Part shown: positions 1,545-32,000 of the stretch, in pieces
How positions within the stretch are numbered: the first letter of the stretch is position 1
Layout: each line of letters starts with the position of its first letter
Origin: an uncultured archaeon
Lineage (GTDB): Archaea > Asgardarchaeota > Thorarchaeia > Thorarchaeales > Thorarchaeaceae
Assembly: GCA_964354495.1 (NCBI GenBank)
Contig: CAYHAA010000009.1
Span: 1-32,000, forward strand
Direction of reading: 5' to 3'
Length of the DNA stretch: 32,000 nt
Notes under the pieces: generated by a model
Told to the model about the DNA's origin: nothing
The model's database searches: none
The model's input: only the letters and a program-made list of their open reading frames with translations
Translations under genes and position numbers: made by a program

Positions 1545-1643
1545 ATTGAATCCTCCCGACTCATTGAGACAGGAGGTGTGAAACTGAATCACTTATATCT
1601 TCCTGCATGTATATGATCTGGACAAATAAGAGGCCACAAACTC

Positions 1644-4187: not shown

Positions 4188-4264
4188 TCCGTATCATCCT
4201 TTAATGTGAGTCCAATCATTTTTGAACTCCGTGCCAAATCAGTGATTCGGTGCGTACAAGCGAG

Positions 4265-4780
4265 TTACTTGGAGTGTCCATCAGGGCTTCTCTGAATGGC
4301 GATCTGTCTAATTCTCGTGCGCCAACGAATGATCGAGTCACAGGCACCATCCTTAGAACACCCGTAATATGTATAGTCGGAACAGTCTATGCAGGGGGAG
4401 ATGGCAACAGCGTTTTCGTTGGCAGCAGCCTCCATCCTACGAAGTACGTCAATCTCACCTCTGAGGGCGTCAATTGAGGAGGGGGCTCTCCTATCATACA
4501 GCTGATAGGCTTCATCAAGTCGCCCGAGATCCATGAGGATCCGTGCTAGCTCTTCCAGAAAATGTGCCGGGTCGGGGTTGAGGGAGATGGCCTTCCGCAG
4601 TGCCTCCTCTGCCTCGTCAAGTCTTCCGAAGGAATGGAGATACGAACCCAGAGTATACCATGTCTGTGCGTCTCGAGGAAATGTCCTGAGCCGCATTCTG
4701 AGGTCAGATTCTATCACAGTAGAAGGCCTGTCGCTTGAAATCGATTGATTAGTCTTCGTGGCATCCTCTCGCTGTGTCAT
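4265..4780 (-). CDS. TPR-repeat protein with C-terminal four-Cys motif
   Basis: TPR consensus (AQTWYTLGSYLHSFGRLDEAEEALRKAISLNP; LARILMDLGRLDEAYQLY) and C-x2-C-x7-C-x5-C. GGAGG precedes the ATG at 4780, preferred over 4807. Confidence 0.8.
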   Translation of the reverse strand: MTQREDATKTNQSISSDRPSTVIESDLRMRLRTFPRDAQTWYTLGSYLHSFGRLDEAEEALRKAISLNPDPAHFLEELARILMDLGRLDEAYQLYDRRAPSSIDALRGEIDVLRRMEAAANENAVAISPCIDCSDYTYYGCSKDGACDSIIRWRTRIRQIAIQRSPDGHSK

Positions 4781-5225
4781 GCGTTGTCCTCCCGGCGGAC
4801 GAATCATGAGGATTCTGTCGATGCAACCAGGGATGAATACCCTTGGAGTGCTAATATAGGGTATGTGTACGGGTGAGAGATTTAGACCTGACTGGCATTG
4901 TAACGGTTATGAATCCTTTTTTCTTACTTTTCAACGTTATACGTATCAGAAGACGCAAAATATGCATTCTAATCACCTCAATCTTGTAGTATAGACCTCA
5001 TAGCACGATTTCACATCCTTCCCTGTGAGAATAATGCGCAAGGCCAGACGACAAATCGAAAGCATAGGGCGCCCTTCTGTTTCTTCATTGCTTTTCGATT
5101 CGAAGTGCTTCTTCACGTTTGATTGCCAGTAGGCAGACTATGCTGGAACTACAAGTAAAACACCTGTGTGAATCGAATCCGGTGGAGAAATCGAAACAGA
5201 TGCAATGCACTACTCTAGAAGAGCT

Positions 5226-8060
5226 TCAAGATGTGGAGAGGACTGATTTCAGATGTTTTCCAGTATAGGATTTCTTCACTCTGGTCACTTCTTCTGGCGT
5301 CCCGACTGCGACGACTTCCCCACCACCGTCACCACCATCAGGGCCGAGATCTATCACCCAATCTGCGGTCTTTATCACTTCGAGATTGTGCTCAACAATG
5401 ACCACGGTGTTGCCTGCGTCGACGAGGCGATTCACTACTCCAAGAAGCACATGTACATCTGAGGCTGAGAGTCCAGTCGTCGGTTCGTCCATCAGGTAGA
5501 GTGTGTTCCCTGTAGACTTGCGGGATAGCTCAGCAGCCAGCTTCATGCGTTGAGCTTCGCCGCCACTCAATGTCGTTGCCGGCTGGCCCAGCTGAAGATA
5601 GCCAAGTCCGACATCGACCAAGGTTCCTAACCTCTCAGCAATCTTGGGAATGTCAGCAAACAACTGTAACGCTTCCTCAATGGTCAAAGAGAGGACCTGC
5701 GTGATGTTCTTTCCTTTGTAAGTGACCTCCAGGGTCTCCCTGTCGAATCGGTTACCCTTGCAGACATCGCAGGTCATGAAGACATCAGACATGAAGTGCA
5801 TCTCGACCTGAATGACGCCACTGCCTTTGCATTTCTCACACCGACCGTCTCTCGTGTTGAAACTGAAACGGCCAGGTCCGTACCCTCTCGCTTTCGCCTC
5901 AGGCATCATTGCAAAGAGGTCTCGAATCTCTCCGAAAGTCTGCGTATACGTTGCAGGATTACTTCTCGGAGTGCGACCGATCGGAGACTGGTCAACGAGA
6001 ATCATTCTATCAATATTCTCGACACCGTCAATAGAATCATAGCTCCCTGGGACAGTACTTGTTCCGTTGAGTTGCTGAGCCAGTGCCTTGTATAGAGTTT
6101 CATGGGTCAGAGAGCTCTTTCCGGCCCCAGAAACGCCAGTGACGCATATGACCGTGCCAAGGGGAAATGCAGCGTCGATGTTCTTGAGGTTGTTGGCCCG
6201 AGCTCCATGAATGACGATCTGCATACCGTTGCCGCACCTTCGCTCTTCAGGAATGGGTATCCTCTTGACTCCAGCTAGGTATTGAGCAGTGAGAGACTTC
6301 GGATCTGCAAGAACTTCAGAGGGTGGTCCCTCAGCCACAAGATAACCGCCATTGACACCGGCAAGAGGGCCGAGATCAATGAGATGATCAGCAGCTGTAA
6401 TTGTATCGCGGTCATGCTCTATCACCACAACAGTATTCCCGAGAGATCTCAAGTGATAGAATGTTTCGATGAGCTTTCCCACATCGCGAGGATGGAGCCC
6501 GATTGATGGCTCATCAAGGCAATACAATACTCCCGTGAGGGCAGACCCTATCTGTGTAGCAAGACGGATTCTCTGGCTCTCCCCTCCTGATAGGGTCATG
6601 GATGCCCTGTCAAGACTCAGATACTCGAGACCTACGGCCAGTAGAAAGTTAAGACGTGCTCGTATCTCCTTGAGTACCAGTTCTGCTATCTTGAACTCTC
6701 GTTCAGTAAGCGTGATGGTCTTGAAGAATTCAGCCGCCTTCTCAATGGTCATCGAGGTAATCTCATCAATGGGCTTTCCCGCAACAGTGACAGCCAGACT
6801 CTCAGGCTTCAGCTTTCTACCATTGCATGCGTCGCAGGCAGTCTTCCGGGAGAACTCATTGGCAATGCGTTGAGCCCACCAGCGGTAGTACAACTTATCG
6901 CTGGCCTTTCCTCGGTCAAAGATACGTTCGAGCCATCTGACTAGACCATACCACTTCCTTGTTATCTCCCACGTCGATGTTTCGCCTTCCTGAGTATAGT
7001 GAAGTGTATATTCAGGACGACCCCAGACCAGTGCTTCTATCTGGGATTGGCTAAGCTCATTGAATGGGGTCTCTAAAGTGAATCCGAGAAGTCTGCCCAG
7101 TTCAACAAGTCTGTCATTCCACCAGGTCCGTTCACCTGCATTGATATGCCGACTTATCTCATGAACCGTCATGCTCTTGTCAGGTACTAAGAGCTCAGGA
7201 TCAATTGACATTGTCACACCAAGACCGTTGCAGACAGGACATGCTCCATCAGGCCTATTGAAGGAGAATGCTTTTGGACCCAGTTTCTCGTACTGAATGC
7301 CACACTTCGGACACATTAGCTGTTGAGCAAAGGTGAGATCCTCTACGCCTTCTCGAGATACGATTGCCCTACCGTCGCCAGTTTCAAGAGCGGTCTCCAA
7401 GGACCCTATCAGCCGCTCACGGTGCTTCTGATTCAGTTCGAGCCTATCAATGACAACATCGATATCGTGCTTCTTCCGTGCATCCAAGTCTACTTGGTCT
7501 ATATCCATGACATCTCCATCCACACGGACACGAACGAATCCATTCTTGTGGAGCCCATCAAGAGCGTCCTGATGCTTACCTGTCTCGCCACGGACTATGG
7601 GGGCGAGGACGTGAATTCTCTGTCCGCCGTTCTCGTCAAGGAGTAGTCGTGCAGCAGACTCAGCGGTCAATTGCTCCATGGGAAGACCGCATTTGACACA
7701 GTGAGCAACTCCAATATTTGCATAGATTAATCGGAGGTAATCATGAATCTCTGTACTCGTGGAAACTGTCGATCGCGGGTTTTTTGTGCGGCCCTTCTGC
7801 TCAATGGAGATAGCAGGTGGGAGTCCCGTGATCTTCTCGACCTTCGGCCTATCGAGCCGTCCGAGAAATCTTCGAGCGTAAGAGCTAAGGCTCTCCACAT
7901 AGCGCCTCTGGCCTTCAGCGAAGATCGTGTCAAGTACAAGGGTTGACTTGCCTGAACCACTTGGCCCCGTGACCACAACAAGACAGTCTCGGGGGATGTC
8001 TACATCAATTGACTTGAGGTTGTGTTCCTCAGCCTTGCGTACCTTGATGTAGCCCGTCAC
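5226..8060 (-). CDS. uvrA: Excinuclease ABC subunit A, second paralog (944 aa)
   Basis: Two Walker A motifs (GPSGSGKST, GVSGAGKSS), LSGGE signatures, DEP Walker B motifs, Zn modules and a UvrB-binding domain. The GTG start overlaps the upstream uvrA stop by 4 nt. Confidence 0.95.
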   Translation of the reverse strand: MTGYIKVRKAEEHNLKSIDVDIPRDCLVVVTGPSGSGKSTLVLDTIFAEGQRRYVESLSSYARRFLGRLDRPKVEKITGLPPAISIEQKGRTKNPRSTVSTSTEIHDYLRLIYANIGVAHCVKCGLPMEQLTAESAARLLLDENGGQRIHVLAPIVRGETGKHQDALDGLHKNGFVRVRVDGDVMDIDQVDLDARKKHDIDVVIDRLELNQKHRERLIGSLETALETGDGRAIVSREGVEDLTFAQQLMCPKCGIQYEKLGPKAFSFNRPDGACPVCNGLGVTMSIDPELLVPDKSMTVHEISRHINAGERTWWNDRLVELGRLLGFTLETPFNELSQSQIEALVWGRPEYTLHYTQEGETSTWEITRKWYGLVRWLERIFDRGKASDKLYYRWWAQRIANEFSRKTACDACNGRKLKPESLAVTVAGKPIDEITSMTIEKAAEFFKTITLTEREFKIAELVLKEIRARLNFLLAVGLEYLSLDRASMTLSGGESQRIRLATQIGSALTGVLYCLDEPSIGLHPRDVGKLIETFYHLRSLGNTVVVIEHDRDTITAADHLIDLGPLAGVNGGYLVAEGPPSEVLADPKSLTAQYLAGVKRIPIPEERRCGNGMQIVIHGARANNLKNIDAAFPLGTVICVTGVSGAGKSSLTHETLYKALAQQLNGTSTVPGSYDSIDGVENIDRMILVDQSPIGRTPRSNPATYTQTFGEIRDLFAMMPEAKARGYGPGRFSFNTRDGRCEKCKGSGVIQVEMHFMSDVFMTCDVCKGNRFDRETLEVTYKGKNITQVLSLTIEEALQLFADIPKIAERLGTLVDVGLGYLQLGQPATTLSGGEAQRMKLAAELSRKSTGNTLYLMDEPTTGLSASDVHVLLGVVNRLVDAGNTVVIVEHNLEVIKTADWVIDLGPDGGDGGGEVVAVGTPEEVTRVKKSYTGKHLKSVLSTS

Positions 8061-11005
8061 TTCGCTGACCTCCGCTTCAGTGCCTTCTTGGGCACTGACT
8101 GTTTCATGGGAATAGCTCGCCCTTGTTTCATCGGTTTCAGTAGTCCACGAAGGTAGTGGCCAGTGAACGAACTCTCACATGCAGCTACATCTTCAGGAGT
8201 TCCTTCCGCAATGAGATATCCGCCTCCATCTCCGCCCTCAGGACCAAGGTCTATCACCCAGTCAGCGGTCTTGGCAACATCCAACTGGTGCTCAATCACG
8301 AGGACTGTGTTTCCTAGGTCAACGAGTCGATGGAGAACTTCGAGTAGTTTCTTGATGTCGGCAAAGTGCAATCCGGTCGTTGGCTCGTCTAGTAATATGA
8401 GAGTCTGCCCAGTGGCAGGTCGTGAGAGGTACTTGCTCAGCTTGATACGCTGCGCCTCGCCGCCCGAGAGCGTAGTCGCGGGCTGTCCGAGTTTCACATA
8501 GCCCATACCAACTTCACAGAGGGTTTCGAGCCGTCTGCGGACACTGGGAATGCCCTCGAAGAACTTGACTGCCTCATCGATACGCATGTCCAAAATGTCT
8601 GCGATGTTCTTGCCCTTGAACCGCACCTGCAGGGTCTCTCTATTGTACCGCCGTCCCTTGCACTCACTGCAAGTGACCTGAACCGGAGGGAGAAACTGCA
8701 TTTCAATGATCTCAACACCTGCACCCTTGCAGGTCCCGCATCGCCCACTCATGACATTGAAGCTGAAACGTCCGGGTTTGTATCCTCTTACCTGGGACTC
8801 GGGAAGGCTTGAGAAGAGGTCTCTCAAGGGTGACCAGAGACCTACGTATGTCGCAGGGTTCGACCTAGGTGTTCTCCCTATGGGACCTTGGTCAATGACT
8901 ATCACCTTGTCAAGCTGCTCCACGCCGAGTATCTCATCAAACTCACCTGGTTTTGCCTCTGCATTGTGGAACCTTCGTGCAAGTTCTCGTTGAAGAGTTT
9001 CTACAATCAGAGAGGATTTGCCAGATCCTGAAACTCCCGTGACTGCGATGAACAGACCGAGGGGAATCCGAAGATTCAGGTTCTTTAGATTATTATGCCG
9101 GCAACCCCTTATTTCGAGGAACCGACCGTTTGGGTGTCTTCTATTCTTCGGAACAGGTATACTATCCTCGCCCCGAAGGAACTTGCCAGTGATGGACCTT
9201 TCACATTTGAGAACATCGTCGAGAGTCCCGGCTACGACAACTTCTCCGCCTTCAGCACCGGCTCCGGGGCCCAGGTCGACGATGTAGTCAGCTCTCCGGA
9301 TGGTCTCTTCATCATGCTCCACAACAAGAACATTGTTCCCCAAGTCTCGCAGATGAGTCAGAGACTTCAGGAGCCTGTCGTTGTCTCGACTGTGAAGCCC
9401 GATACTGGGCTCGTCACACACATACGTCACACCAACAAGGTTTGAGCCAATCTGGCTCGCAAGGCGAATCCTCTGAGCCTCGCCTCCTGCAAGACTCGGA
9501 GCGGACCTATCGAGAGTGAGATAGTCTAGTCCTACATCCTCGAGGAATCCGATACGCCCCATTATCTCACGAATAATTGGGTCAGAAACCGGTCGAAGTC
9601 TAGGCACAACTTGTGCCTTCTCGAAGAACTCCCTCAGAGCCTTGATTGACATGTTGTTCAGGTCAGTGACAGACTTGCCATCGAATGTCACGGCCAGAGA
9701 CTCGGATCTCAGCCTCCTGCCGTTGCAGAGGGGGCAGGTCTGAGATGACATGAACTTCTCGAGAATACTCTGACCATACTCAGATGTTGTAGTCTTGTAG
9801 AGCCTCTTCGCCCGTTCTACCCACCCCTCAAAGGGCCTCTGGAACGTCCCCTTGAACTGGACCTCGTACTCTGGATTATCGGCTTCCCATGTGGCCTCGA
9901 ACTTCTCGTCACCTGAGCCATAGAGAAGTAGGTTTCGCTGCTTCTCCGTCATGTCCTTCCATGGTGTGTCCATGGTAAAGCCGTAGTGCTCAACAATCTT
10001 CTTGGTGAAGTCGCGTTTGACTTTCCACTCGTCTGTCGAGAACAGGCCATCATTCAGAGAGCGGCTTGGATCTGTGATGAACATATCAGGGTCGAACTGC
10101 CTGATGACACCAATGCCTGTACAGCGAGGACATGCGCCTTGAGGTGTGTTCCAACTGAAGATACGAGGTTCCATTTCTGGAAGACTGATACCACAGTCAA
10201 CACAGGCGAACTGCTCTGACAAGGTCAGATCTCCATCAGGACCAATGATAGTGACCACTCTCTCGGCCATCTTCAGTGCGGTCTCCACAGCCTCTGAGAT
10301 TCGCCCTCGCTCTGATGCCTTCACAGTGAGACGGTCGATGACCACTTCTATCGTATGCCCAAAGTACCTATCAAGCGACATACCTTCCTCAAGCTCAAGG
10401 AGTTTCCCGTCAACGCGCGCTCGTATGTACCCCCTCTTCATCAGGTCCTTGAACTCTCTCCGATACTCTCCCTTGCGTCCCCGGACAATAGGAGCCAGAA
10501 TCATGACACGGGAGCCCTCTTTGAAATCCATGATTCGGTCAACAATCTGCTGAGATGTCTGGGGTTCGATCTTCTTTCCGCATTTCGGGCAGTGGGGCTC
10601 TCCGACTCTAGCGTACAGAAGGCGCAGATAATCATAGATCTCTGTAATGGTCCCAACAGTTGACCTTGGATTACGGCTGACACTCTTCTGATCGATTGAT
10701 ATCGATGGTGAGAGACCTGTCATGAGGTCGACCTTTGGTTTCTCAAGCATTCCCAAGAACTGCCGAGCATACGGTGATAGTGACTCGATAAATCGCCTCT
10801 GGCCTTCACTGTAGATAGTATCAAAGACCAAGGAGCTCTTCCCTGACCCCGAGAGACCTGTCACTACTGTAAGAGTATTCTTTGGAATAGTGACATCGAT
10901 GTGTTTCAGATTGTGCTCAGCGGCGCCAATGACCACGATTGACCTAGGAATATCTTCCTCAGACTCTAGGTCACCAGTGCTCTTCTTCTTGTCCGCCGTG
11001 GTCAC
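8057..11005 (-). CDS. uvrA: Excinuclease ABC subunit A (982 aa)
   Basis: GAAEHNLK, GLSGSGKSS, EGQRRFIESLS, Zn modules, GRTPRSNPATY, LSGGEAQRIKL. The GTG start overlaps the uvrB stop by 4 nt. Confidence 0.98.
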   Translation of the reverse strand: MTTADKKKSTGDLESEEDIPRSIVVIGAAEHNLKHIDVTIPKNTLTVVTGLSGSGKSSLVFDTIYSEGQRRFIESLSPYARQFLGMLEKPKVDLMTGLSPSISIDQKSVSRNPRSTVGTITEIYDYLRLLYARVGEPHCPKCGKKIEPQTSQQIVDRIMDFKEGSRVMILAPIVRGRKGEYRREFKDLMKRGYIRARVDGKLLELEEGMSLDRYFGHTIEVVIDRLTVKASERGRISEAVETALKMAERVVTIIGPDGDLTLSEQFACVDCGISLPEMEPRIFSWNTPQGACPRCTGIGVIRQFDPDMFITDPSRSLNDGLFSTDEWKVKRDFTKKIVEHYGFTMDTPWKDMTEKQRNLLLYGSGDEKFEATWEADNPEYEVQFKGTFQRPFEGWVERAKRLYKTTTSEYGQSILEKFMSSQTCPLCNGRRLRSESLAVTFDGKSVTDLNNMSIKALREFFEKAQVVPRLRPVSDPIIREIMGRIGFLEDVGLDYLTLDRSAPSLAGGEAQRIRLASQIGSNLVGVTYVCDEPSIGLHSRDNDRLLKSLTHLRDLGNNVLVVEHDEETIRRADYIVDLGPGAGAEGGEVVVAGTLDDVLKCERSITGKFLRGEDSIPVPKNRRHPNGRFLEIRGCRHNNLKNLNLRIPLGLFIAVTGVSGSGKSSLIVETLQRELARRFHNAEAKPGEFDEILGVEQLDKVIVIDQGPIGRTPRSNPATYVGLWSPLRDLFSSLPESQVRGYKPGRFSFNVMSGRCGTCKGAGVEIIEMQFLPPVQVTCSECKGRRYNRETLQVRFKGKNIADILDMRIDEAVKFFEGIPSVRRRLETLCEVGMGYVKLGQPATTLSGGEAQRIKLSKYLSRPATGQTLILLDEPTTGLHFADIKKLLEVLHRLVDLGNTVLVIEHQLDVAKTADWVIDLGPEGGDGGGYLIAEGTPEDVAACESSFTGHYLRGLLKPMKQGRAIPMKQSVPKKALKRRSAK

Positions 11006-12993
11006 TCTTGAACTCCCTCTACTCTCTTCCGTAATCCTGCAATCTGATCTCGGAGCTTTGCAGCCCTCTCGAACTCAAGGTTCCGGGCAGCCTCCTTCAT
11101 TTGTTCTTCCAAGTCGATGATGTAGTCAGCAAGTTCATCCACCTCAAATGGGTCAAAGTCCTCTAGCTTTGTCTGAGCTTCTTTCTCAGGCTTGACAATA
11201 CCCTGTGCAATGTCCTGAATGCCCTTCACAATTGACGTCGGTCGAATGCCATGTTCCTCGTTGTATTTCGTCTGATAGCGACGTCTTCGGTTGGTCTCAT
11301 CGATGGCAGACTGCATCGCATCTGAAACGTGGTCACCATATAGAATCACACGCCCATTGGCATTTCTTGCTGCTCGGCCCATCGTCTGAATGAGTGCCCA
11401 GTCCGTTCGTAGGAAGCCTTCCTTATCAGCATCCAGAATTGCCACCAAAGAAACCTCTGGGAGGTCAAGCCCCTCTCGAAGGAGGTTAATTCCGACCAAG
11501 ACGTCAAACTTTCCCTGACGAAGTTCGCGAACAATCTCAATTCGCTCGACGGTCCCTATATCGGAGTGGAGATATCGCGCCTTGACACCTGCTTCTACAA
11601 GATACTCACTCAGCATCTCAGCAGTCTTCTTTGTGAGTGTCGTGACTAGGATTCGGTCACCCAGAGTAACTGTCCTCTTGATCTCTCCAAGGAGATGGTC
11701 CACCTGACCTACTACAGGCTTGACGATGACCTCAGGGTCTAGGAGCCCGGTTGGTCGAACCAGCTGCTCAACTATCTGCTGACTCACCTTCTTTTCAAAC
11801 GGGCCAGGTGTCGCGGTCGTGTAGATGACGCTCCTCATGTACTTCTCAAACTCGTGGAACTTCAGGGGTCTGTTGTCAATCGCGGAAGGCAACCTGAAGC
11901 CATAATCAACAAGGTTCTGCTTCCGAGCAAGGTCGCCATTGTACATCCCATGTAACTGGGGGATGGTCATATGACTCTCATCAAGAATCATCAGGAAGTC
12001 ATCAGGGAAGTAATCCAGCAGGGTAAAGGGTTTTACACCCTTTGCACGGCCATCAATGAATCGTGAGTAGTTCTCAATCCCCTGACACATGCCAGTCTCT
12101 CTCAGCATCTCAAGATCGAATAGGGTTCTGCGCTTCAGGCGGTCCGCCTCGACTAATTTGCCCTCTTTCTTGAACCACTCAACCCGCTCTTCCATCTCCT
12201 GCTCGATCTCATCGAGGACCTCAACGACTTTCTCATATCGTGCGATATGATGACGGGCAGGGTAGAGTTCAAACCAGTCAGGATTTCCAATTTTCCTGGC
12301 AGTGAGGCGTTCAAGAAGAGTGAGCCTGTCAACAACATCACCGTCAAGCTCTATCCGGATGCTATTCTCGGACCCTGAGGGGTACACATCGATGACATCG
12401 CCTCTGACCCTGAAGACTCCCGGTTTGACATCCATGTCGTTGCGTTCGTACTGCATGGCTACAAGGCGTTCCAGAATCTCTCTCCTGTCGACCTTTTTTC
12501 CTCGTTCGACGTACATTCGGAAGTAATCGTACTCGCTTGGGTCCCCCACACCATAGATACAGGACACGGAGGCCACCACAACGACATCCTTTCGAGAACG
12601 GAGTGAGTGGGTCGTTGAGTGGCGGAGTCGTTCGATCTCTTCATTGATGTCAGTCTCTTTCTCAATGTACATGTCCTTTGAGGGAACATACGCCTCGGGC
12701 TGGTAGTAGTCATAGTAGCTGACGAAGTACTCCACCGCATTTGACGGAAAGAACTGCTTGTATTCAGAGGCGAGCTGTGCTCCTAGAGTCTTGTTGTGGG
12801 ATATGACCAGAGTAGGTTTCTTCACTGCCTCTATGACATTGGCAATTGTGAACGTCTTGCCTGAGCCTGTGACTCCCAGAAGGGTCTGATGCTCAAGACC
12901 GCTCTCCAGACCCTCCACCAGCTTGGCAATTGCCTGTGGCTGGTCACCAGTTGGTTTGAAGGGTGCCCTGAGCTCAAAGTTCTGGTCTGCCAT
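11002..12993 (-). CDS. uvrB: Excinuclease ABC subunit B
   Basis: PTGDQP, GVTGSGKT, beta-hairpin YYDYYQPEAY, DESH, LREGLDLPEV, QTMGRAARN, C-terminal UVR domain. Start probably the ATG at 12993 (alternatives 13005, 13023). Confidence 0.98.
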   Translation of the reverse strand: MADQNFELRAPFKPTGDQPQAIAKLVEGLESGLEHQTLLGVTGSGKTFTIANVIEAVKKPTLVISHNKTLGAQLASEYKQFFPSNAVEYFVSYYDYYQPEAYVPSKDMYIEKETDINEEIERLRHSTTHSLRSRKDVVVVASVSCIYGVGDPSEYDYFRMYVERGKKVDRREILERLVAMQYERNDMDVKPGVFRVRGDVIDVYPSGSENSIRIELDGDVVDRLTLLERLTARKIGNPDWFELYPARHHIARYEKVVEVLDEIEQEMEERVEWFKKEGKLVEADRLKRRTLFDLEMLRETGMCQGIENYSRFIDGRAKGVKPFTLLDYFPDDFLMILDESHMTIPQLHGMYNGDLARKQNLVDYGFRLPSAIDNRPLKFHEFEKYMRSVIYTTATPGPFEKKVSQQIVEQLVRPTGLLDPEVIVKPVVGQVDHLLGEIKRTVTLGDRILVTTLTKKTAEMLSEYLVEAGVKARYLHSDIGTVERIEIVRELRQGKFDVLVGINLLREGLDLPEVSLVAILDADKEGFLRTDWALIQTMGRAARNANGRVILYGDHVSDAMQSAIDETNRRRRYQTKYNEEHGIRPTSIVKGIQDIAQGIVKPEKEAQTKLEDFDPFEVDELADYIIDLEEQMKEAARNLEFERAAKLRDQIAGLRKRVEGVQE

Positions 12994-13272
12994 CCTAACG
13001 GTCATCTCCTTTGCTAGGCTCACGCATAAACATTACAACTTAGGGTTAGTGGTACATGCTATGCCAGCGAATGACTGAAACTAGTACTAGTAGCTTCTTG
13101 AGCGATGTAATCCGCAAGCACGGACAACCCTGTCGGGGAGAGGTAGGTGAATATATCATTACATCTCAATGGAACCGAGCTATCTTTCCTCCTGTGTTTT
13201 TCTACGTCAAAGGCAATCTTATTGTGCAGAATTAGGGCCTCCCGGTTGAGGTGGTCTACCATATTTAGAGAG

Positions 13273-18551: not shown

Positions 18552-20981
18552 TTATGTTGCAGGTTTGCCTCTCATCCGCAAAACCACAGCTGCCACAACA
18601 ATGACAACCGCAGCCGCTCCGATGATTATCAGGAGCGTTGTGATATCGCCACCCAAACCAACAGCAAGTACCTCTATGCTTCCTTCAACTGACGTAGACG
18701 TATCAATGGTACTCACCATGTAGATAGTATAGTTCAGTGTGCCTGCCTCGGCTGGAGTCCAACTGTATGTATAGGTATCTCCACTTGCCTCCATTGGATG
18801 ACTGCTACCATTGAATTCGATGCTCACCGAACTGACTCCTAGGAAGTATGTCACATTAACAGCGACTGTCACCTCAGTCCCAACGTAGACGACAGCGGGA
18901 GTGATGAGAAGTCCCTCATAGCTTGGACCTGTCGTTAGTGGAGTATATGTGAAGCTCTGCTCAGCCCAGTCGGACCAGAAGCCATAGCTGTCACAGGTCT
19001 GGACTCGCCAGTAATAGCTAGTATTGTTAACTAATGAAGGACCAGCGTAGTCAACAGATGATTCAGACTCTACGAAGTCGATCATCAAGTTGTACCCTGC
19101 AGTCTGGTTTCCTAGTCTTGGTAGTCCCAGCCAGTGAACGTCCCATGCCCTATAACACACCGCGGCTGAGTAAAGATTCGGTACTTGTGCATATCCACTA
19201 GAGAGCGAATCCCATTGTAGCTCTATGAGCAAGTCGTGAGTATTGCTGTAGTAGAATGTGTTCTCAAAGTCGAGTACCAAGCAATTACCCAGATTTCGAA
19301 CTTCGTATGTGCTCGCATCTATTACGACAGTGGGAGTCCTTCCGCCATAGTTGGAACTGAAGTCGAGATGCGCGAGAGGACCTATGACGGGTGTTTCCAC
19401 GACAGAAACGGTGAGATTCTCAAAGACAACATTGCCATCCACTTGAAACACTCTGAAGTAGACCTTATCGATTGTGCCATCTCTGTCAATGATGGACTGG
19501 TTGTACTTGATTTGGAACAGACCTGGTGAACCAGGTGTGGTCCCAAAGGGGAACGCATTAGAGTCTACTAAAGCAGATGCAAAGACCTCTTCCGTTTGGA
19601 AACCAATCTTGAGATCATATAATCGATCAGCTGTATAGATTGCTGTGTCTGTTGTGTAGGCTCCGGATCCATAAGCGCCAGCTACGCTTCCTGGAACTGT
19701 GTTCACGCGGCCTATTCTCGTGATATCAGCTGTATTATTCATCAGTCTGAACTCTATGATCAGATTGAGATAGTTATTCAACATGAAGATATTTTCAACA
19801 TCAATCACTAGGATGTGATTTGAGTAAGACACTTCATAGAGGTCCATTGAGAGAACTGTCGTAGGCTCACGTCCATCATAATTCACGGTAAAGTTGGAAC
19901 TGAGCACGGATGTGTCTTCGACCATGAACATTCGAATCTCGAAATCCTCAAGCACAAGAGTCCCAGATTCCTCAATTGTTCGGAAATAGAGTCTGTCTAC
20001 CATTCCTGAGCGTGGCAATTCCGAGCTGGGGTATTTTGTCTGAAGTCGTATCTCCTCGTCCATGCCAAAGGGATGATAGTTCCCGTCCATCAATGCACTA
20101 CTGTAGATGGTGGTCACGTCTTCACTAGAGGAGTTCCACATCTGGGTTCCATTATAGTACTCAGTATCCCAGACCTCAACATTGTGACCTCTCTGGTAAT
20201 CACCAACATCAGGATCAGAAAATTCCCAGCCAAGTGTTGGAGAGGCGTCCTGAATATAATCAATCAATGGTGATTCAGAATACCCACTTGTTGTTAAGCC
20301 ATTTACTGCAGGATTCGTAAATGATAGCTCTATGTAGGCGGCAAAGATAGGCGCGTGGGTAGATTCATCATAGTAGTCGAGCGCATTCTGCGTTCCTATC
20401 TCTACCGTCTGCTTAAGTACCTCAGTAAGCATCTTATCACCAGCTAGTGCACCACGGACATCATTCGTGATTTCCCAGCCATACCAGGTCTTGTCAACAA
20501 ACATATCAGGGCTTGCGGGCGAATCGATGACATCTGAGGGCACCGCAGCGAATGCTGGTTGGAGGTTCCAAGTCAATGTTGACTCAGTCCAACTATCATC
20601 ATCGCAGTAATAGACTCCGACAGGCTCATCAGGTTCTCCCCACTCATAGTTCATGCGCACATACATGGTTGCCTTGTAGAATGGCTCACTTGCCTCGCTG
20701 AGATTGAATTTAAGCCAGGAGCGAGCAGTCCACCACATACCATCAAAGCCTGTTCCAAGGAGCAGAAATAGTTGATCGATAAAGTTGATATCTCCATATG
20801 AACCGTTGAGAACACTCACGTCTTCCGAAACAACTATGTTCTCCAATGAACCCTCTGACAATCCAGCTGGTTCAAAGGTGTACGTCAAACCATCAGCACG
20901 TACCAGTGCCAACGTCGACGTGGTGGATATCATTTGCAAAAAGATGAGCATACTCATAATGATTAAGGATAGTTTCTTCAT
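18552..20981 (-). CDS. Large secreted, membrane-anchored surface protein (DNRLRE-like domain, internal tandem repeat)
   Basis: ATG at 20981 (MKKLSLII signal) after GAGGT. RSWLKFNLS...SWTESTLTWNLQP resembles a DNRLRE/CBM96-like domain. YYWRVQ Fn3-like strand, Ig-like domain, C-terminal TM helix with a basic tail. Confidence 0.85.
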   Translation of the reverse strand: MKKLSLIIMSMLIFLQMISTTSTLALVRADGLTYTFEPAGLSEGSLENIVVSEDVSVLNGSYGDINFIDQLFLLLGTGFDGMWWTARSWLKFNLSEASEPFYKATMYVRMNYEWGEPDEPVGVYYCDDDSWTESTLTWNLQPAFAAVPSDVIDSPASPDMFVDKTWYGWEITNDVRGALAGDKMLTEVLKQTVEIGTQNALDYYDESTHAPIFAAYIELSFTNPAVNGLTTSGYSESPLIDYIQDASPTLGWEFSDPDVGDYQRGHNVEVWDTEYYNGTQMWNSSSEDVTTIYSSALMDGNYHPFGMDEEIRLQTKYPSSELPRSGMVDRLYFRTIEESGTLVLEDFEIRMFMVEDTSVLSSNFTVNYDGREPTTVLSMDLYEVSYSNHILVIDVENIFMLNNYLNLIIEFRLMNNTADITRIGRVNTVPGSVAGAYGSGAYTTDTAIYTADRLYDLKIGFQTEEVFASALVDSNAFPFGTTPGSPGLFQIKYNQSIIDRDGTIDKVYFRVFQVDGNVVFENLTVSVVETPVIGPLAHLDFSSNYGGRTPTVVIDASTYEVRNLGNCLVLDFENTFYYSNTHDLLIELQWDSLSSGYAQVPNLYSAAVCYRAWDVHWLGLPRLGNQTAGYNLMIDFVESESSVDYAGPSLVNNTSYYWRVQTCDSYGFWSDWAEQSFTYTPLTTGPSYEGLLITPAVVYVGTEVTVAVNVTYFLGVSSVSIEFNGSSHPMEASGDTYTYSWTPAEAGTLNYTIYMVSTIDTSTSVEGSIEVLAVGLGGDITTLLIIIGAAAVVIVVAAVVLRMRGKPAT

Positions 20982-21264
20982 GCTACATACCTCAACTCTG
21001 CTATTGACGAGGTGCTTTAGCCTCAAAACCAGCAGTGCAGACGAAGTTTTCCCAAGGAATCCAGTCGTCACACTCCTTTTGCCAAGACTCCTCGCGAATT
21101 CCAGACTTCAGATACGATGGGAGATGCAGCTTATTACTTTTCCTGTAAAATTGGCAAGGTCTACCTCTGGGGCATCATTGGAATGAAGTTTGGAAACTTG
21201 ATTGATCTAGTAAGCTGCGAAAACAGATTTGATTCCAGTTCTACTCTAGCACAGTGAAGATTGA

Positions 21265-22119
21265 TTGAGAACCACTGGCATCTATCTGGACAAGAACAGG
21301 CTACAACCAGGAGAAACACTCTCAGGTCAAGTCACCATACGAACTAGCAAGTCATACGAATGCAACCGGGTTGTTCTGAAGACAATAGGGAAAGAGAGAA
21401 CGGAACGTGCTGCTGGAGAAACTAATGTAGTTGAGGAAAAGCACCATATCAATACCGTGTTCACAATCAGCGAGGGAGGTATCATCCCAGAAGGTGTATC
21501 TCGATTCCCATTTTCCTTCAGACTGCCGAGCAGTCTACCGCCAAGCTATCATGGGAGAAACGGGACAATTGAGTATTCAGTCCGGAGTGTGGTTGAGGTC
21601 AATTGGGCTCTGGACCCTGTGTCGGAAGAATCATTCTATGTCCTACAGGAGGGACCTCCTAGTCTTCACGATATCTTTGATGTTCGTCGCCTGAATCAGA
21701 CATCAGGACATCTGCATGTCAAGCTCGATTCGAATGCTATATGGATGAACAGAGGAATACGTGTAAGGTTCATGGTGAGTGAGAGGAGTCGAGTGAAAGG
21801 AGTCAGGTTTGAAATGCTCAAGAGAGAAGAAGCACTCTGTCAGCATCATGTAGTGAATAACCATGAAACGGTGGCCTTTGAGTTCTATCCTATTTCTCCT
21901 GCTGATTTCGAGAGTTGGAAGGATGTACAGGTCGGAAAAACGTTGGATTGCCAATTACCATTCCGCGGAGAGCTTATTTCCGTTTCTTACATTCTGAAGG
22001 TCAGCCTAGATGTATCACTCGGACGAGATCCTGATGTGATGATTCCGCTCGAGTTCTCAAAAGATGTCCCTGTTGGGAATGTATTGGATGAAATTGAGCG
22101 CGACCTCTGGCGAATCTAA
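21265..22119 (+). CDS. Arrestin-fold (arrestin-N/SpoOM/Vps26-like) protein
   Basis: PGETLSGQVTI and FPFSFRLPSSLPPSYHGRNGTIEYSVR match the arrestin-N pattern. A second beta-sandwich follows (ISVSYILKVSL). TTG start. Confidence 0.8.
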   Translation: MRTTGIYLDKNRLQPGETLSGQVTIRTSKSYECNRVVLKTIGKERTERAAGETNVVEEKHHINTVFTISEGGIIPEGVSRFPFSFRLPSSLPPSYHGRNGTIEYSVRSVVEVNWALDPVSEESFYVLQEGPPSLHDIFDVRRLNQTSGHLHVKLDSNAIWMNRGIRVRFMVSERSRVKGVRFEMLKREEALCQHHVVNNHETVAFEFYPISPADFESWKDVQVGKTLDCQLPFRGELISVSYILKVSLDVSLGRDPDVMIPLEFSKDVPVGNVLDEIERDLWRI

Positions 22120-22270: not shown

Positions 22271-23026
22271 TCAAGCAGACAATCCATCGTCAAAGAAATA
22301 GTCTAATGGTAGGGTCACAGCATAGTGGTCAGAGAATCTTGTTCGGTGCTCAGTGCGGACAGGAAGTGATGGATGCTTTGTCAGCATATAGAGCGTTCTC
22401 ATCGGAGTCTGCTCTACAAGGATATGGACTTGAGCATTGGTCGCCAAGGCCCTGCCAACGGGGGGAATTGCTTTGGAGGACGGATGGCTGCCCGTGGAAA
22501 CAAGAGTGACAAGTCCGTACTCAAGGGTCTTCGCCATAAGTCGGGCAGAGGCATGCGCAATCTGTTGAGACCTCTCGCCATCGAGGCCTTCGCTAGCGAA
22601 GAGATCAGGCAGACCAGGGACTATAAGTATCTTCGCAGCGATGCGTTCCATGTATTCGTCAAGATGGTTGACCAGAAGGTCGTAGGTCTGAGAGGAGTTG
22701 AATGCTCTTGAGATGAAGATGTTGTCCATCACGTCTTCAGCGTTCAATTCATACTCGGAAGCATAGTCTGCAAGCTTCAGGGTATCGATCATGTTTGAGC
22801 TATCGATGATGATTACTGGACCAGCAAATCCACCTCGTGCCTCTGGAATCTGAGCCCATACCGCTGCACGAAGCAAGTCCTCACAGAACGAGGTGTGTCC
22901 GTAGAAGAGATGTACAAGTCCGCATTCGTATCCGCCCTCAAGCAGTCTATCAATGGCTAGAACGCCGCTTCCAAGACGCACATGCACTAATGCGTCTGCA
23001 GTCTGGAAGCTTACATCATGGTGCAC
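22271..23026 (-). CDS. RadA/Rad51-like protein, ATPase-dead and lacking the N-terminal HhH domain
   Basis: GSGVLAIDRLLEGG, AQIPEARGGFAG, IIIDS and ISRAFNS align to RadA. Walker A reads GHTSFCED and Walker B reads ILIVPG. Confidence 0.85.
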   Translation of the reverse strand: MHHDVSFQTADALVHVRLGSGVLAIDRLLEGGYECGLVHLFYGHTSFCEDLLRAAVWAQIPEARGGFAGPVIIIDSSNMIDTLKLADYASEYELNAEDVMDNIFISRAFNSSQTYDLLVNHLDEYMERIAAKILIVPGLPDLFASEGLDGERSQQIAHASARLMAKTLEYGLVTLVSTGSHPSSKAIPPVGRALATNAQVHILVEQTPMRTLYMLTKHPSLPVRTEHRTRFSDHYAVTLPLDYFFDDGLSA

Positions 23027-28728: not shown

Positions 28729-30783
28729 TCATGCGGCCTTGCTTCCAGGGGTCACACCGTCGAGTTTCACAGGGAGCCAACGACCGGGTTGGTCGCCCTT
28801 CTCCACTGCGATGATCATGCCATGACTCTCAATGCCGCCAATCTTCTTGGGTTCCAGGTTGGTCAGGAACAGAGCAGTCATCCCAAGTAGCTCTTCGGGC
28901 TTGTACTGGTCCGCAAGGCCCGTGATGATTGTACGCTTCTCGGTCCCAATATCCACCTCCAGCTGGAGGAGTTTGTCTTTCTTCGGAACACGAACACATT
29001 TCAGTATCTTGCCTGCTCGTAAGTCAAGCTTCTTGAACTCATCAAATGTAATCATTTCCTTCTCTTCCACTATTGGTTCACCTCGCTGAGCTGCCTCAGC
29101 CGCCTTTATTCGATTATCGATTATGGTCGTCAATGACGCCAGAAGGGCGTCGTCTATCTTTGCTATGACAGGCTGAGGATTGACGATTTTAGTACCTGCC
29201 TTTGGAGGCTCGAGTGCCGCCTCAAGAGGCACAGTATGGATTTCAGGACCTTTGAAGCCGAGCTGCTTCCAGATCTTCTCTGCAGCACTTGGCATAATGG
29301 GCTCGACAAGAACAGCAATAGCCTTGACGAGAGCTACCGAGTTATACAGAACTTCCCCGCATTTGGCCTTGTCTTCCTTGACAAGTGCCCAAGGTCGATT
29401 TGTCTGGAAGTACTCATTGCCAATTGATGCCAAGCGGAGTATCTCATCTGATGCCTTCTTGAGTTCGTATTCATTGACTGCATCAATGATCGTCTCAATG
29501 GACTTCTCCACTTCCGTCTTCAACGATTTCTCGAACTTTCCCTCTGGAACAGTACCATAGTGTTCCTTGGTGAAGTAGAGAGTTCGGTAGACGAAGTTCC
29601 CCAGTGTACCAACTAGCTCCGTGTTCACTTTATCGGCGAACGCTGAAAAGCTGAAATCGAGGTCACGTGTGTGTCCTGTGAATGACACCATATAGTACCG
29701 TAGGTAGTCAGGATCTAGACCATTCTTCAGGTAATCATCCAGAATCCAGATGACATAGCCTCTGCCCCGGCTGAAGTTGTGACCCTGTATCTTGACCATT
29801 CCAGATGCAACGATCGCTGATGGAAGGTTGTAGTTGCTCCCTTTCAGCATGGCCGGCCAGAACAGGCAATGATGGTACACGATGTTCTGTCCGATGAAGT
29901 GGACCAATCGACCGTTGCCAGGCAACCAGAATTTCTTCCACTCGTTTGGCTTCTTGATCTTCTTTGCCCACTGCTCTGTACTCGACATATAGTGAATTGG
30001 AGCATCAACCCAGACATAGAGTTTGAGACTCTCATCGCCAGGATACGGGATACCCCATTCCAGGTCTCTTGTGATGCACCAGTCCTTGAGACCCTCATTC
30101 ACCCAACCGAGAGCGTAGTTCTTTGCTACCTTTGAACCGTCGACGTCGGTAAGATACTTCTTCAGAAAATCCTGGAATGCAGACAGTCTGAAGTAGTAGT
30201 GCGTTCGAGTGACTGTCCGGGTCGGAGAGCCACAGATGGCACATCTTGGATTCAGAACTTCGCCTGGTTCCAGATACCGACCGCAGCCCTGGTCGCACTC
30301 ATCGCCGCGAGCGTCCATATGACAATATGGGCACTCACCACGGACATATCGATCCGGCAGAGACCTGCGATCGTTGTCACAATATGGGGAGGCCAAGTCT
30401 TTCGGATAGATGTGCCCGTTCTTCTGAAGCTCTTTCACGATCTGAAGGGTGCGAGCGATGTTTTCAGGATCATCAGTCGTGCCGTAGTTGTCAAAGTTGA
30501 TATTGAGCTTGGGAAAGATGTCGAGATAGTACTGGTGGTACTTTGTATAGAGCTCTTTGGGACTGACGCCAGCGGCCTCTGCTGCGGTCAGGACAGGGGT
30601 ACCATGGGTGTCTGAGCCACAGACGAATGTAACATCCACTCCCATCTTCTTCAGGAGTCTGACAAACACGTCGGCAGGTACATAGGTCCTGAGGTGACCG
30701 ATGTGCATCTGCCCACTAGCATATGGAAGTCCGCAAGTTACAAGGACTGGATCTTTAGTGGGGTAGTTTCTCAGTCTAGTCAC
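28729..30783 (-). CDS. metG: Methionyl-tRNA synthetase with C-terminal tRNA-binding OB domain
   Basis: GLPYASGQMHIGH, GSDTHG, Zn knuckles, YVWVDAPIHY, C-terminal FDEFKKLDLRAGKI...SHGM. Confidence 0.97.
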   Translation of the reverse strand: MTRLRNYPTKDPVLVTCGLPYASGQMHIGHLRTYVPADVFVRLLKKMGVDVTFVCGSDTHGTPVLTAAEAAGVSPKELYTKYHQYYLDIFPKLNINFDNYGTTDDPENIARTLQIVKELQKNGHIYPKDLASPYCDNDRRSLPDRYVRGECPYCHMDARGDECDQGCGRYLEPGEVLNPRCAICGSPTRTVTRTHYYFRLSAFQDFLKKYLTDVDGSKVAKNYALGWVNEGLKDWCITRDLEWGIPYPGDESLKLYVWVDAPIHYMSSTEQWAKKIKKPNEWKKFWLPGNGRLVHFIGQNIVYHHCLFWPAMLKGSNYNLPSAIVASGMVKIQGHNFSRGRGYVIWILDDYLKNGLDPDYLRYYMVSFTGHTRDLDFSFSAFADKVNTELVGTLGNFVYRTLYFTKEHYGTVPEGKFEKSLKTEVEKSIETIIDAVNEYELKKASDEILRLASIGNEYFQTNRPWALVKEDKAKCGEVLYNSVALVKAIAVLVEPIMPSAAEKIWKQLGFKGPEIHTVPLEAALEPPKAGTKIVNPQPVIAKIDDALLASLTTIIDNRIKAAEAAQRGEPIVEEKEMITFDEFKKLDLRAGKILKCVRVPKKDKLLQLEVDIGTEKRTIITGLADQYKPEELLGMTALFLTNLEPKKIGGIESHGMIIAVEKGDQPGRWLPVKLDGVTPGSKAA

Positions 30784-31019: not shown

Positions 31020-32000
31020 ATGACCAGAGACTGGATTTCAGCCTTAGAAGCGGTGCCTCTAGATTGGCTTCTGGAAGCAGACAATCCTCCAGTCCGGTTC
31101 TACACCATGAGAGACCTCCTGGATTATCGAGCAGATAATTCTGAGTTGATTGCTGCGAACGAGGCGATTATCAGCTGTCGACCGGTTCAACAGATACTGA
31201 AGAAACAGAACTCCGATGGATCATGGATGTCTAAGGATGAACCCTACATCCCGAAGTACAAGTCCTCGTATTGGCAGGTCATGCTCCTTGCGATGTTCGG
31301 CATGAATCGCAGGAATCCACAAGTAGAGTCAGCAATCAACCACCTACTTGCTTTTCAGCACCCAGAAGGCGGTTTTGAAACACATGAAGCAACAAGGAAG
31401 CAATACGAGTTCGTGCGCAAGAGAAACCTAGCCAAGAAGAGACCTACACCAAGTTTCGAGGAGTGGGCGCCTCTCAAGTACAGAGAGATGCAGATGTCCT
31501 GCCTGACAGGAAATGTCTGCCTTGCATTGATTCGGCTGGGATATGAACATCATGATGCCCTAAAGAAAGCACTACAGTGGCTGGTCGAGATTCAGAATGT
31601 GGATGGGGGATGGACATGTCCATATTGGGGAGCTCATAAGAATGACAAGCATGGATGCTTCATGGGCACTATTACACCACTCGACGCATTCTCGGAAGCA
31701 CAAGTGAATCCTAAGGATGCAAGTATGAAGGAAGCGATCAGACACGGAGCTGACTTCCTCCTGATGCATAGACTCTACAAATCTGACCATCATGACTTCA
31801 GCGTGATAGATTCGAGATGGCTGAAAATCTGCGTCCCGCAATTCTTCTTTGACATTCTCAGAGGGTTGGCAGTCCTAACGAAGCTCGGGTATTCGAATGA
31901 CGAACGCATTGATGATGCCTTGCAGATTGTATTGAAGAAACAGGATCGCTCCGGAAAGTGGCATTCGGACTATAGCTATTCAGGTCGCCTCCATGGAACT
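31020..32000 (+). CDS. Prenyltransferase/squalene-oxidase-repeat (alpha/alpha toroid) protein; 3' end truncated
   Basis: Manually translated from ATG 31020, open to the window edge (327 codons). QW-type repeats QNSDGSW, QHPEGGF, QNVDGGW, QDRSGKW. Confidence 0.85.
   Translation, partial: MTRDWISALEAVPLDWLLEADNPPVRFYTMRDLLDYRADNSELIAANEAIISCRPVQQILKKQNSDGSWMSKDEPYIPKYKSSYWQVMLLAMFGMNRRNPQVESAINHLLAFQHPEGGFETHEATRKQYEFVRKRNLAKKRPTPSFEEWAPLKYREMQMSCLTGNVCLALIRLGYEHHDALKKALQWLVEIQNVDGGWTCPYWGAHKNDKHGCFMGTITPLDAFSEAQVNPKDASMKEAIRHGADFLLMHRLYKSDHHDFSVIDSRWLKICVPQFFFDILRGLAVLTKLGYSNDERIDDALQIVLKKQDRSGKWHSDYSYSGRLHGT

Follow-up and report, generated by a model that had tools for sequence, protein, structure and literature searches.

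A Thorarchaeota pseudo-ATPase of the iRadA family, encoded apart from PPB2 and PolB2, with a conserved FxTAD motif and a PIP-like tail

Introduction

What might a RadA-like protein do once its ATPase sites are lost? This question is raised by a gene at positions 22271..23026 of the 32,000-nucleotide stretch of archaeal DNA analysed here (the window). The gene, which lies on the minus strand together with all of its features given below, has a GTG start and encodes a protein of 251 amino acids. The first-pass annotation, made from the letters alone, had read this protein as a RadA/Rad51 pseudo-ATPase, proposed that it acts on recombinase filaments and pointed to reports of inactive RadA-like genes next to archaeal PolB2. 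On the basis of its reading frame, Pfam Rad51 match, AlphaFold2 model, Foldseek matches, homologs and dN/dS, we describe it as an iRadA-like pseudo-ATPase, paralog A of Thorarchaeota (Thor).

An operon of iRadA, PPB2 and PolB2 was described by Makarova et al. 2014 (PMC4104785). Its products make up the PolB2 mutasome of archaea and bacteria, a translesion-synthesis complex in which iRadA is the catalytically dead RadA-core subunit. Timinskas et al. 2025 modelled this complex as a heteropentamer of PolB2, an inactive RadA homolog and a trimer of PPB2, which has an MGRT arm; PolB2 contacts iRadA by means of a loop mimicking the oligomerisation motif of Rad51 (PMC11791011). Many, not all, iRadAs end in a PCNA-binding motif; the published description states that the oligomerisation region is missing, does not discuss an N-terminal FxTAD and makes no mention of Asgard archaea (PMC11791011). 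Our literature search found no paper naming a Thor or Asgard iRadA. To our knowledge, the PolB2 mutasome is known only through genomics, structure prediction and Sulfolobus genetics on PolB2 itself, and we know of no experimentally established function for its iRadA subunit.

Results

A RadA-type core with degenerate ATPase sites

Pfam Rad51 covered residues 16-159 of paralog A with an E value of 1.6e-15, and the NCBIfam models of RadA, RAD51 and DMC1 matched it at 53-56 bits, far under their cut-offs (56.4 bits against a cut-off of 259 for RadA). The NCBIfam RadB model gave 15.8 bits against a cut-off of 172. The cores of RadA and RAD51 were the best solved relatives in residue-level alignment. 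The AlphaFold2 model, built from a 54-sequence alignment, had a pLDDT of 85.5 and a pTM of 0.82, with low confidence confined to residues 1-9 and approximately 230-251, and Foldseek placed it on RAD51/RadA protomers at a TM score (TMq) of 0.82. Together, the confidence profile and the structural match indicate that paralog A comprises an entire RecA-type core flanked by two flexible tails. As the first-pass annotation had noted, no N-terminal HhH domain was present in the 251 residues according to the reading frame, Pfam and the AlphaFold2 model, since the protein begins six residues before FQTA.

Alignment to RadA and RAD51 delineated the loss of each ATPase element. The Walker A motif, GEFGSGKT in RadA/RAD51, is replaced by GHTSFCED (residues 43-50, 22877..22900), which is two residues shorter than GxxxxGKT, and Walker A was degenerate in every member of the iRadA-like family that we compared. 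DSS at residues 75-77 (22796..22804) replaces the DTE that true RadAs retain, with loss of the catalytic Glu; D75 and S76 were invariant in the Thor alignment, and S77 was mostly serine and at times alanine. The Walker B segment LLIVDS corresponds to ILIVPG (residues 133-138, 22613..22630), wherein Asp has become Pro; all family members had P, S, T or A at this position, followed by an invariant G138. These alignments agreed with the initial reading of both Walker sites, including the two-residue deletion. Judged from its sequence, paralog A should be unable to bind or hydrolyse ATP. Its L2 region is also shorter than that of RadA, Rad51 and Dmc1.

Other recombinase segments are retained, and the alignment upheld the earlier identification of QIP..RGG and RAFNS. 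The latter belongs to SRAFNSSQ (residues 106-113, 22688..22711), the most conserved block of the protein, in which R107, A108, F109 and Q113 were invariant across the family alignments. In RAD51 and RadA, the region homologous to this block lines the pocket that receives FxxA. Hydrophobic positions of paralog A align with M158, I160, F166, L171, L186, V189 and L203 of RAD51, which we take to be its pocket residues, and we infer from this mapping that the SRAFNSSQ region forms a predicted FxxA-type pocket.

Conservation and purifying selection

A large protein collection contained 187 relatives of paralog A, nearly all about 250 aa long and 92% to 45% identical to it, and named Candidatus Thorarchaeota wherever a name was given. 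Species-representative genomes contributed 79 loci, nearly all from Thorarchaeota MAGs, including Thor OWC2 at 92% identity. A 30-sequence alignment, with identity down to 44%, contained 33 invariant columns. Among unsaturated pairs within paralog A, the Nei-Gojobori dN/dS ratio was 0.06-0.13, which indicates strong purifying selection rather than decay, and the reading frame was intact in dozens of genomes. In-frame TGA codons were reported for three genomes of one genus, where the 242-aa ORFs are intact from their own Met; these stops presumably lie upstream of the start. The destruction of all ATPase motifs would suit a RadA duplicate that is decaying or survives as a remnant with no function, and a dN/dS near 1 had been named beforehand as the sign of a decaying gene. 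The low ratio, the intact frames, the invariant columns and the confidently folded model speak against a remnant; selection and conservation refute a pseudogene and leave this reading a virtually negligible probability.

Conserved motifs in both flexible tails

The N-terminal tail carries FQTAD (residues 7-11, 22994..23008), a polymerisation (FxxA) motif of the RadA type, with FQTA itself at 23008-22997, exactly where the first-pass annotation had located it. Residues 1-9, which include the N-terminal part of FQTAD, had a pLDDT below 50 in the AlphaFold2 model. F7, T9, A10 and D11 were each at least 90% conserved in the 30-sequence alignment. Furthermore, Fx[TSA]A[DE] was found near the N-terminus of 110 of the 117 near-full-length cluster representatives, the remaining seven being N-terminally truncated gene calls; the conservation in orthologs that had been proposed as a check is thus present. 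The RadA of the host has GFETAD at the homologous position, so that its consensus is identical to the family's FxTAD. The linker from FxTAD to the core is five residues shorter in the iRadA-like proteins than in RadA.

The motif has a different fate in the operon-encoded iRadAs of other Asgard archaea. Those of the Loki-like family have only the aromatic residue left (GFxV, GYxY), and sequence comparison detected nothing of FxTAD in those of the other Asgard family. F-x-T-A is also found N-terminally in a few unrelated iRadA-like clusters (P0208, P0226, P0229, P0254 and P0265), and we therefore rejected the idea that FxxA retention is unique to Thor. Retention is thus strongest in Thor without being exclusive to it.

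The C-terminal tail holds a PIP-like box, TLPLDYFF (residues 238-245, 22292..22315), which is followed by an acidic end and does not appear among the features of the first-pass annotation. The tail had low pLDDT, with a short helix at residues 241-243 of the AlphaFold2 model. The pattern [TD]LPLxx[FY][FLI] occurred near the C-terminus of 110 of the 117 near-full-length representatives. TLPLDYFF fits xxxLxxFF and, compared at the level of sequence, resembles the genuine PIP boxes of the same genome, namely QSSLSDFF at the end of FEN1, QSTLEQWL in a FEN1-like protein and TTLDKFF at the end of a 972-aa PolB. It has no canonical Gln and does not lie at the extreme C-terminus. The Loki-type iRadAs terminate in T[LI]DxWF. 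The tail of the host PolB2 has no aromatic pair, which fits the published pattern that the clamp motif usually resides on either iRadA or PolB2 (PMC11791011). The host also encodes two adjacent PCNA homologs (G000:C6:122906-124108, plus strand; frames of 256 and 275 aa), and a heteromeric clamp composed of the two would matter for which PIP box binds where.

Paralog A belongs to the iRadA family

Subsequently, we placed the protein among RadA-like families. Across 201 genomes of the phylum, profile matches with E <1e-88 were confined to the Thor family, usually with two in each genome. A second Asgard family and one genome of a third gave full-length matches (about 250 aa) at ~1e-47, and a further Asgard family gave them at ~1e-30; ordinary RadA scored ~1e-20 against the family profile. 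Stretches of 16.7 kb around 20 of the matching places were compared. At six loci from two other Asgard lineages, the iRadA-like gene lay upstream, on the same strand, of a gene for a ~90-aa protein and one for a 756-804-aa protein, directly adjacent to this pair at three loci (L041, L042 and L045) and with the pair 1-5 genes further downstream on the same strand at the other three. Pfam DNA_pol_B matched the larger product at 81-114 bits, which marks it as a divergent DNA polymerase of family B, and the ~90-aa proteins all start with MGRTV[PR][ST]FR, the hallmark of PPB2 (PMC11791011). The presence of a polymerase and an MGRT small protein beside an iRadA-like gene identifies these loci as iRadA-PPB2-PolB2 operons.

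When the operon iRadAs were searched back against the host genome by tblastn, paralog A and its relative paralog B ranked above RadA. In a quick IQ-TREE search with SH-aLRT support only, which does not resolve the base of the Thor clade, the Thor proteins formed one clade (SH-aLRT 95) that grouped with the operon iRadAs, apart from RadA, the second RadA, the RadB-like protein and a further pseudo-ATPase encoded in the host genome. A phylogeny had been proposed as a check by the first-pass annotation; this one separates the Thor proteins from RadA and RadB and joins them to operon-encoded iRadAs. Both the NCBIfam RadB score and the tree speak against a RadB identity, for which retention of the P-loop GxxxxGKT would be expected; the genome's own RadB-like gene (on contig C3) keeps GEAAAGKT and branches apart from the iRadA-like clade. 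Membership in KaiC or aRadC was likewise ruled out by profile scores and the tree.

A profile search of 1.84 billion proteins extended this picture. About 130 of the best 150 representatives were iRadA-like proteins without Walker A, which have in common YG, [IV]DG[GN]N, [IV]SRAF[TN]xxQ and a Walker B that lacks Asp; many of them end in a PIP-like motif (TLDxWF or LDxF[LFM]). The representatives form a continuum of Walker-A-less proteins, and in the same search true RadAs first appeared at E values of ~5e-28 and weaker. Collectively, the sequence comparisons establish paralog A as a member of the iRadA sequence family. Some longer proteins also contain an iRadA-like core (P0148 with 481 aa, P0172 with 616 aa, and P0143 and P0163 with 442 aa) and are possibly fusions; iRadA-PPB2 fusions have reportedly been described.

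The iRadA-like genes and the PPB2-PolB2 pair are separated in Thor genomes

Six places in the host genome (G000; 3.3 Mb, 97.7% complete) belong to the Rad51 family: RadA, a second full-length RadA, the RadB-like gene, a weak pseudo-ATPase inside another operon, paralog A and paralog B. On contig C1, PPB2 (91 aa, starting MGRTVRTF) lies directly upstream of PolB2 (G000:C1:211504-214058, minus strand), and no iRadA adjoins this pair. The same arrangement, a PPB2-PolB2 pair without an upstream iRadA, was found at 12 Thor loci, and PPB2 was present in 57 of the 61 Thor genomes searched. Thor PolB2 is an ortholog of the operon PolB2s and keeps the Phe in the loop before DRGG, with PEFLK[TS]ITEL in Thor versus EGFKTGTEL and EGFRSGMDL in the operon lineages. 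The retained Phe suggests that PolB2 still expects a RadA-fold partner, for which paralogs A and B are the sole candidates in the genome. Orthologous PolB2s have a longer N-terminus that includes a GWLLD segment, which in the host frame is located ahead of the first ATG, GTG or TTG.

Paralog A itself is flanked in the window by an arrestin-like gene and a 153-aa gene of no assigned function, and has no PPB2 or PolB2 neighbor; the genomic linkage that defines iRadA is therefore not found for it. The first-pass annotation was right that no polymerase flanks the gene, yet the argument it drew against a PolB2 link does not hold, given that the polymerase is encoded elsewhere, on contig C1. Its mention of PolB2-associated inactive RadA proved pertinent, with the nearest non-Thor relatives residing in iRadA-PPB2-PolB2 operons and a PPB2-PolB2 pair orphaned in the genome.

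Paralog B (258 aa; G000:C1:433867-434643, minus strand) carries FFTAD, YGDHCPHDD, VTGLPNLY and TLPLSCFL. B-type genes were found in nearly all Thor genera, in a neighborhood conserved in most of them, with GcvH upstream at 49 of 57 loci and a protein of ~2600 aa downstream. In the 201-genome sample, A-type genes were confined to the window's genus, most genomes of which have both copies; they account for 22 of the 79 species-representative loci and form a clade (SH-aLRT 98) on a longer stem branch. A and B are located on different contigs with unrelated neighbors. Two fairly complete, fragmented Thor MAGs, G197 (99% complete) and G016 (95% complete), had PolB2 and no strong iRadA-like match. 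All of these genome counts are drawn from samples of MAGs. Some Thor genomes (G131, G046 and G205) had 3-5 PPB2-like matches, and on contig C96 of G131 a distance of 1.2 kb separates a C-terminal iRadA-like fragment from a second PPB2-like gene. Some Thor genomes may therefore contain extra iRadA-PPB2 pairs, which have reportedly been seen in haloarchaea.

Two candidate links for paralog A were considered and rejected. The motif GGAATAT[AT] upstream of A, B and PPB2 in the host was not conserved upstream of the orthologs, and is attributable to chance or to a TATA-like element. An operon partner was likewise dismissed, given that the divergent 153-aa gene and the convergent arrestin-like gene are kept only in the nearest genomes and are absent at the G087 locus of the same clade.

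The wider neighborhood includes genes of DNA repair. Within 5 kb of A-type loci, a histidine-phosphatase gene was found downstream in 16 of 22 cases and uvrB-uvrA in 5 of 22; the gap between paralog A and uvrB varies, with 1.5 kb in one genome at the lower end and ~9 kb in the window at the upper. With the A-type genomes all falling in a single genus, the linkage may simply have been inherited, and we treat an A-uvrB-uvrA association as a lead only. In the window, a bacterial-type nucleotide-excision-repair cluster at 2376-13023 (minus strand) comprises, in this order, uvrB (673 aa), two tandem uvrA genes, a TPR gene and uvrC (603 aa); the tandem UvrA paralogs, of 982 and 944 aa, are 48% identical according to a comparison with a relative. 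The convergent neighbor of paralog A at 21265-22119 (plus strand) encodes a 284-aa arrestin-like protein (Pfam Arrestin_N, Arrestin_C and Vps26) of the eukaryote-signature type of Asgard archaea. Among the remaining genes, one encodes a predicted surface protein of 839 aa (18552-21071, minus strand) that combines CBM96 and Ig-like domains with a signal-like segment at its N-terminus and a hydrophobic anchor at its C-terminus. Others encode methionyl-tRNA synthetase (28729-30783, minus strand) and, both extending beyond the window, a PLD-like phosphodiesterase (3-1592, minus strand) and a squalene-hopene-cyclase-like repeat protein (31020-32000, plus strand).

Discussion

We consider it reasonably probable that paralog A is a lineage-specific iRadA paralog that serves as a trans-encoded adaptor for PolB2 and PCNA. 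According to this model, the iRadA gene would have left its operon in Thorarchaeota, with PPB2 and PolB2 staying paired on contig C1 and iRadA-like genes residing elsewhere, in two copies in the window's genus. The RadA-type hydrophobic pocket around SRAFNSSQ would take the Phe-containing loop of PolB2, as in the published iRadA model, and the PIP-like TLPLDYFF tail would tether the complex to PCNA. The N-terminal FxTAD could insert into the pocket of a second RadA-fold protein, be it RadA or paralog B; in this way the polymerase might be coupled to recombination intermediates, or A and B might be joined as a pair. The physical contacts of paralog A with PolB2, PCNA, RadA and B are in each case inferred ones. 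Our main doubt is that the mutasome subunit may be B rather than A: given that A is confined to one genus on a longer stem and B is widespread, A may have taken on a different job. Further points against the adaptor reading are the missing linkage of A to PPB2 and PolB2, a PIP-like box that has no canonical Gln and is not terminal, the non-conserved upstream motif, and the two MAGs, G197 and G016, with PolB2 and no strong iRadA-like match.

A bolder version, which we judge quite unlikely, is that the Thor iRadA is a free-standing, duplicated three-way adaptor, in which FxTAD would bind RadA or the sister paralog, the pocket would hold the PolB2 loop and the PIP-like tail would bind PCNA, coupling the error-prone polymerase to RadA filaments or D-loops. 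If true, archaea closely related to eukaryotes would possess an equivalent of RecA-activated Pol V and of Rad51-paralog complexes.

The evidence was also weighed for functions that do not involve PolB2. As in the original proposal, paralog A might modulate RadA filaments, with its FxTAD plugging the pocket at a filament end, its own pocket accepting the RadA FxxA, or both, so that it would act as a cap, nucleator or inhibitor like eukaryotic Rad51 paralogs. The near-invariant FxTAD that matches the host RadA, the conserved pocket-lining block and the absence of linkage to a polymerase are consistent with such a role; moreover, a new function would be in keeping with the status of A as an additional, lineage-specific copy with a longer branch, and RAD51 protomers from filaments that paralog complexes cap are among its best structural matches. 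Nevertheless, the nearest relatives are operon-encoded iRadAs, the host PPB2-PolB2 pair is left without its third subunit, the conserved PCNA-type tail points to a context of replication or translesion synthesis rather than filament control, and the linker between FxTAD and the core is shorter than that of RadA. We therefore regard filament modulation without PolB2 as unlikely.

Dead Rad51 paralogs also work in pairs in eukaryotes, as in Csm2-Psy3 of the Shu complex and SWS1-SWSAP1, and A and B might by likeness form a head-to-tail heterodimer or a short hetero-oligomer, with the FxTAD of one in the pocket of the other, serving either as a mediator or to offer PolB2 and PCNA a two-copy platform. 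The co-occurrence of both copies in most genomes of the window's genus, and the retention of FxTAD, the pocket block and the PIP-like tail in A as well as B, would suit this pairing. However, most Thor genera have only a B-type copy and keep FxTAD there too, which indicates that the motif does not need a second paralog, and the two genes stand on separate contigs among unrelated neighbors. Judged from the sequences, such a heterodimer seems very unlikely.

The Thor proteins show that an iRadA can be encoded in trans, be duplicated and keep the recombinase polymerisation motif under strong selection, and they yield the testable hypothesis that translesion synthesis is connected with RadA filaments and PCNA through a dead recombinase. 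They also account for the "orphan" pseudo-RadA seen in nearly all Thor genera. Furthermore, such proteins are relevant to counting Asgard RadA paralogs when the origin of eukaryotic Rad51 paralogs is traced; in one such study, identical sequences, highly divergent ones and RadB were removed from the RadA data set (PMC12722695).

Compared with known systems, paralog A shares with RadA, Rad51 and Dmc1 the core fold, FxxA before the core, the RGG and RAFN blocks and the pocket-lining region, whereas it lacks HhH, Walker A, the catalytic Glu and Walker B. It resembles XRCC2, Csm2-Psy3 of the Shu complex and SWSAP1 as a RadA-fold protein of the kind with a dead or weak ATPase that acts through protein contacts with the recombinase. 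Even so, paralog A matches XRCC3 and RAD51B far more weakly than RAD51/RadA and groups with archaeal iRadAs in the tree; no orthology with the eukaryotic paralogs is indicated. ImuA of the bacterial ImuA-ImuB-DnaE2 system and RecA in Pol V Mut (UmuD'2C-RecA) are recombinase-fold, non-recombining accessories of an error-prone polymerase, and the comparison suggests the same logic for paralog A. Among the ideas of the first-pass annotation, this analogy to ImuA, a dead recombinase as a mutasome accessory, appears to fit best. It comes with differences: no specific sequence relationship is evident, paralog A is of RadA rather than RecA descent, and the polymerase belongs to another family.

The closest likeness is to iRadA (arCOG07763, arCOG04294 and arCOG08101), which likewise consists of a ~250-aa RadA/Rad51 core without an N-terminal helical domain, has lost the ATPase residues and bears a C-terminal PIP-like motif. 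The closest non-Thor relatives of paralog A are encoded in iRadA-PPB2-PolB2 operons, and its host has both a PPB2 with the MGRT arm and a PolB2 with the Phe-bearing docking loop. Paralog A differs in standing outside the operon, in being duplicated (A and B) in the window's genus and in keeping a canonical FxTAD. The kind of protein, an iRadA pseudo-ATPase with PolB2 association and a PIP motif, is thus already known; what differs here is that it lies out of the operon across Thorarchaeota, is duplicated in one genus and has a strongly conserved FxTAD.
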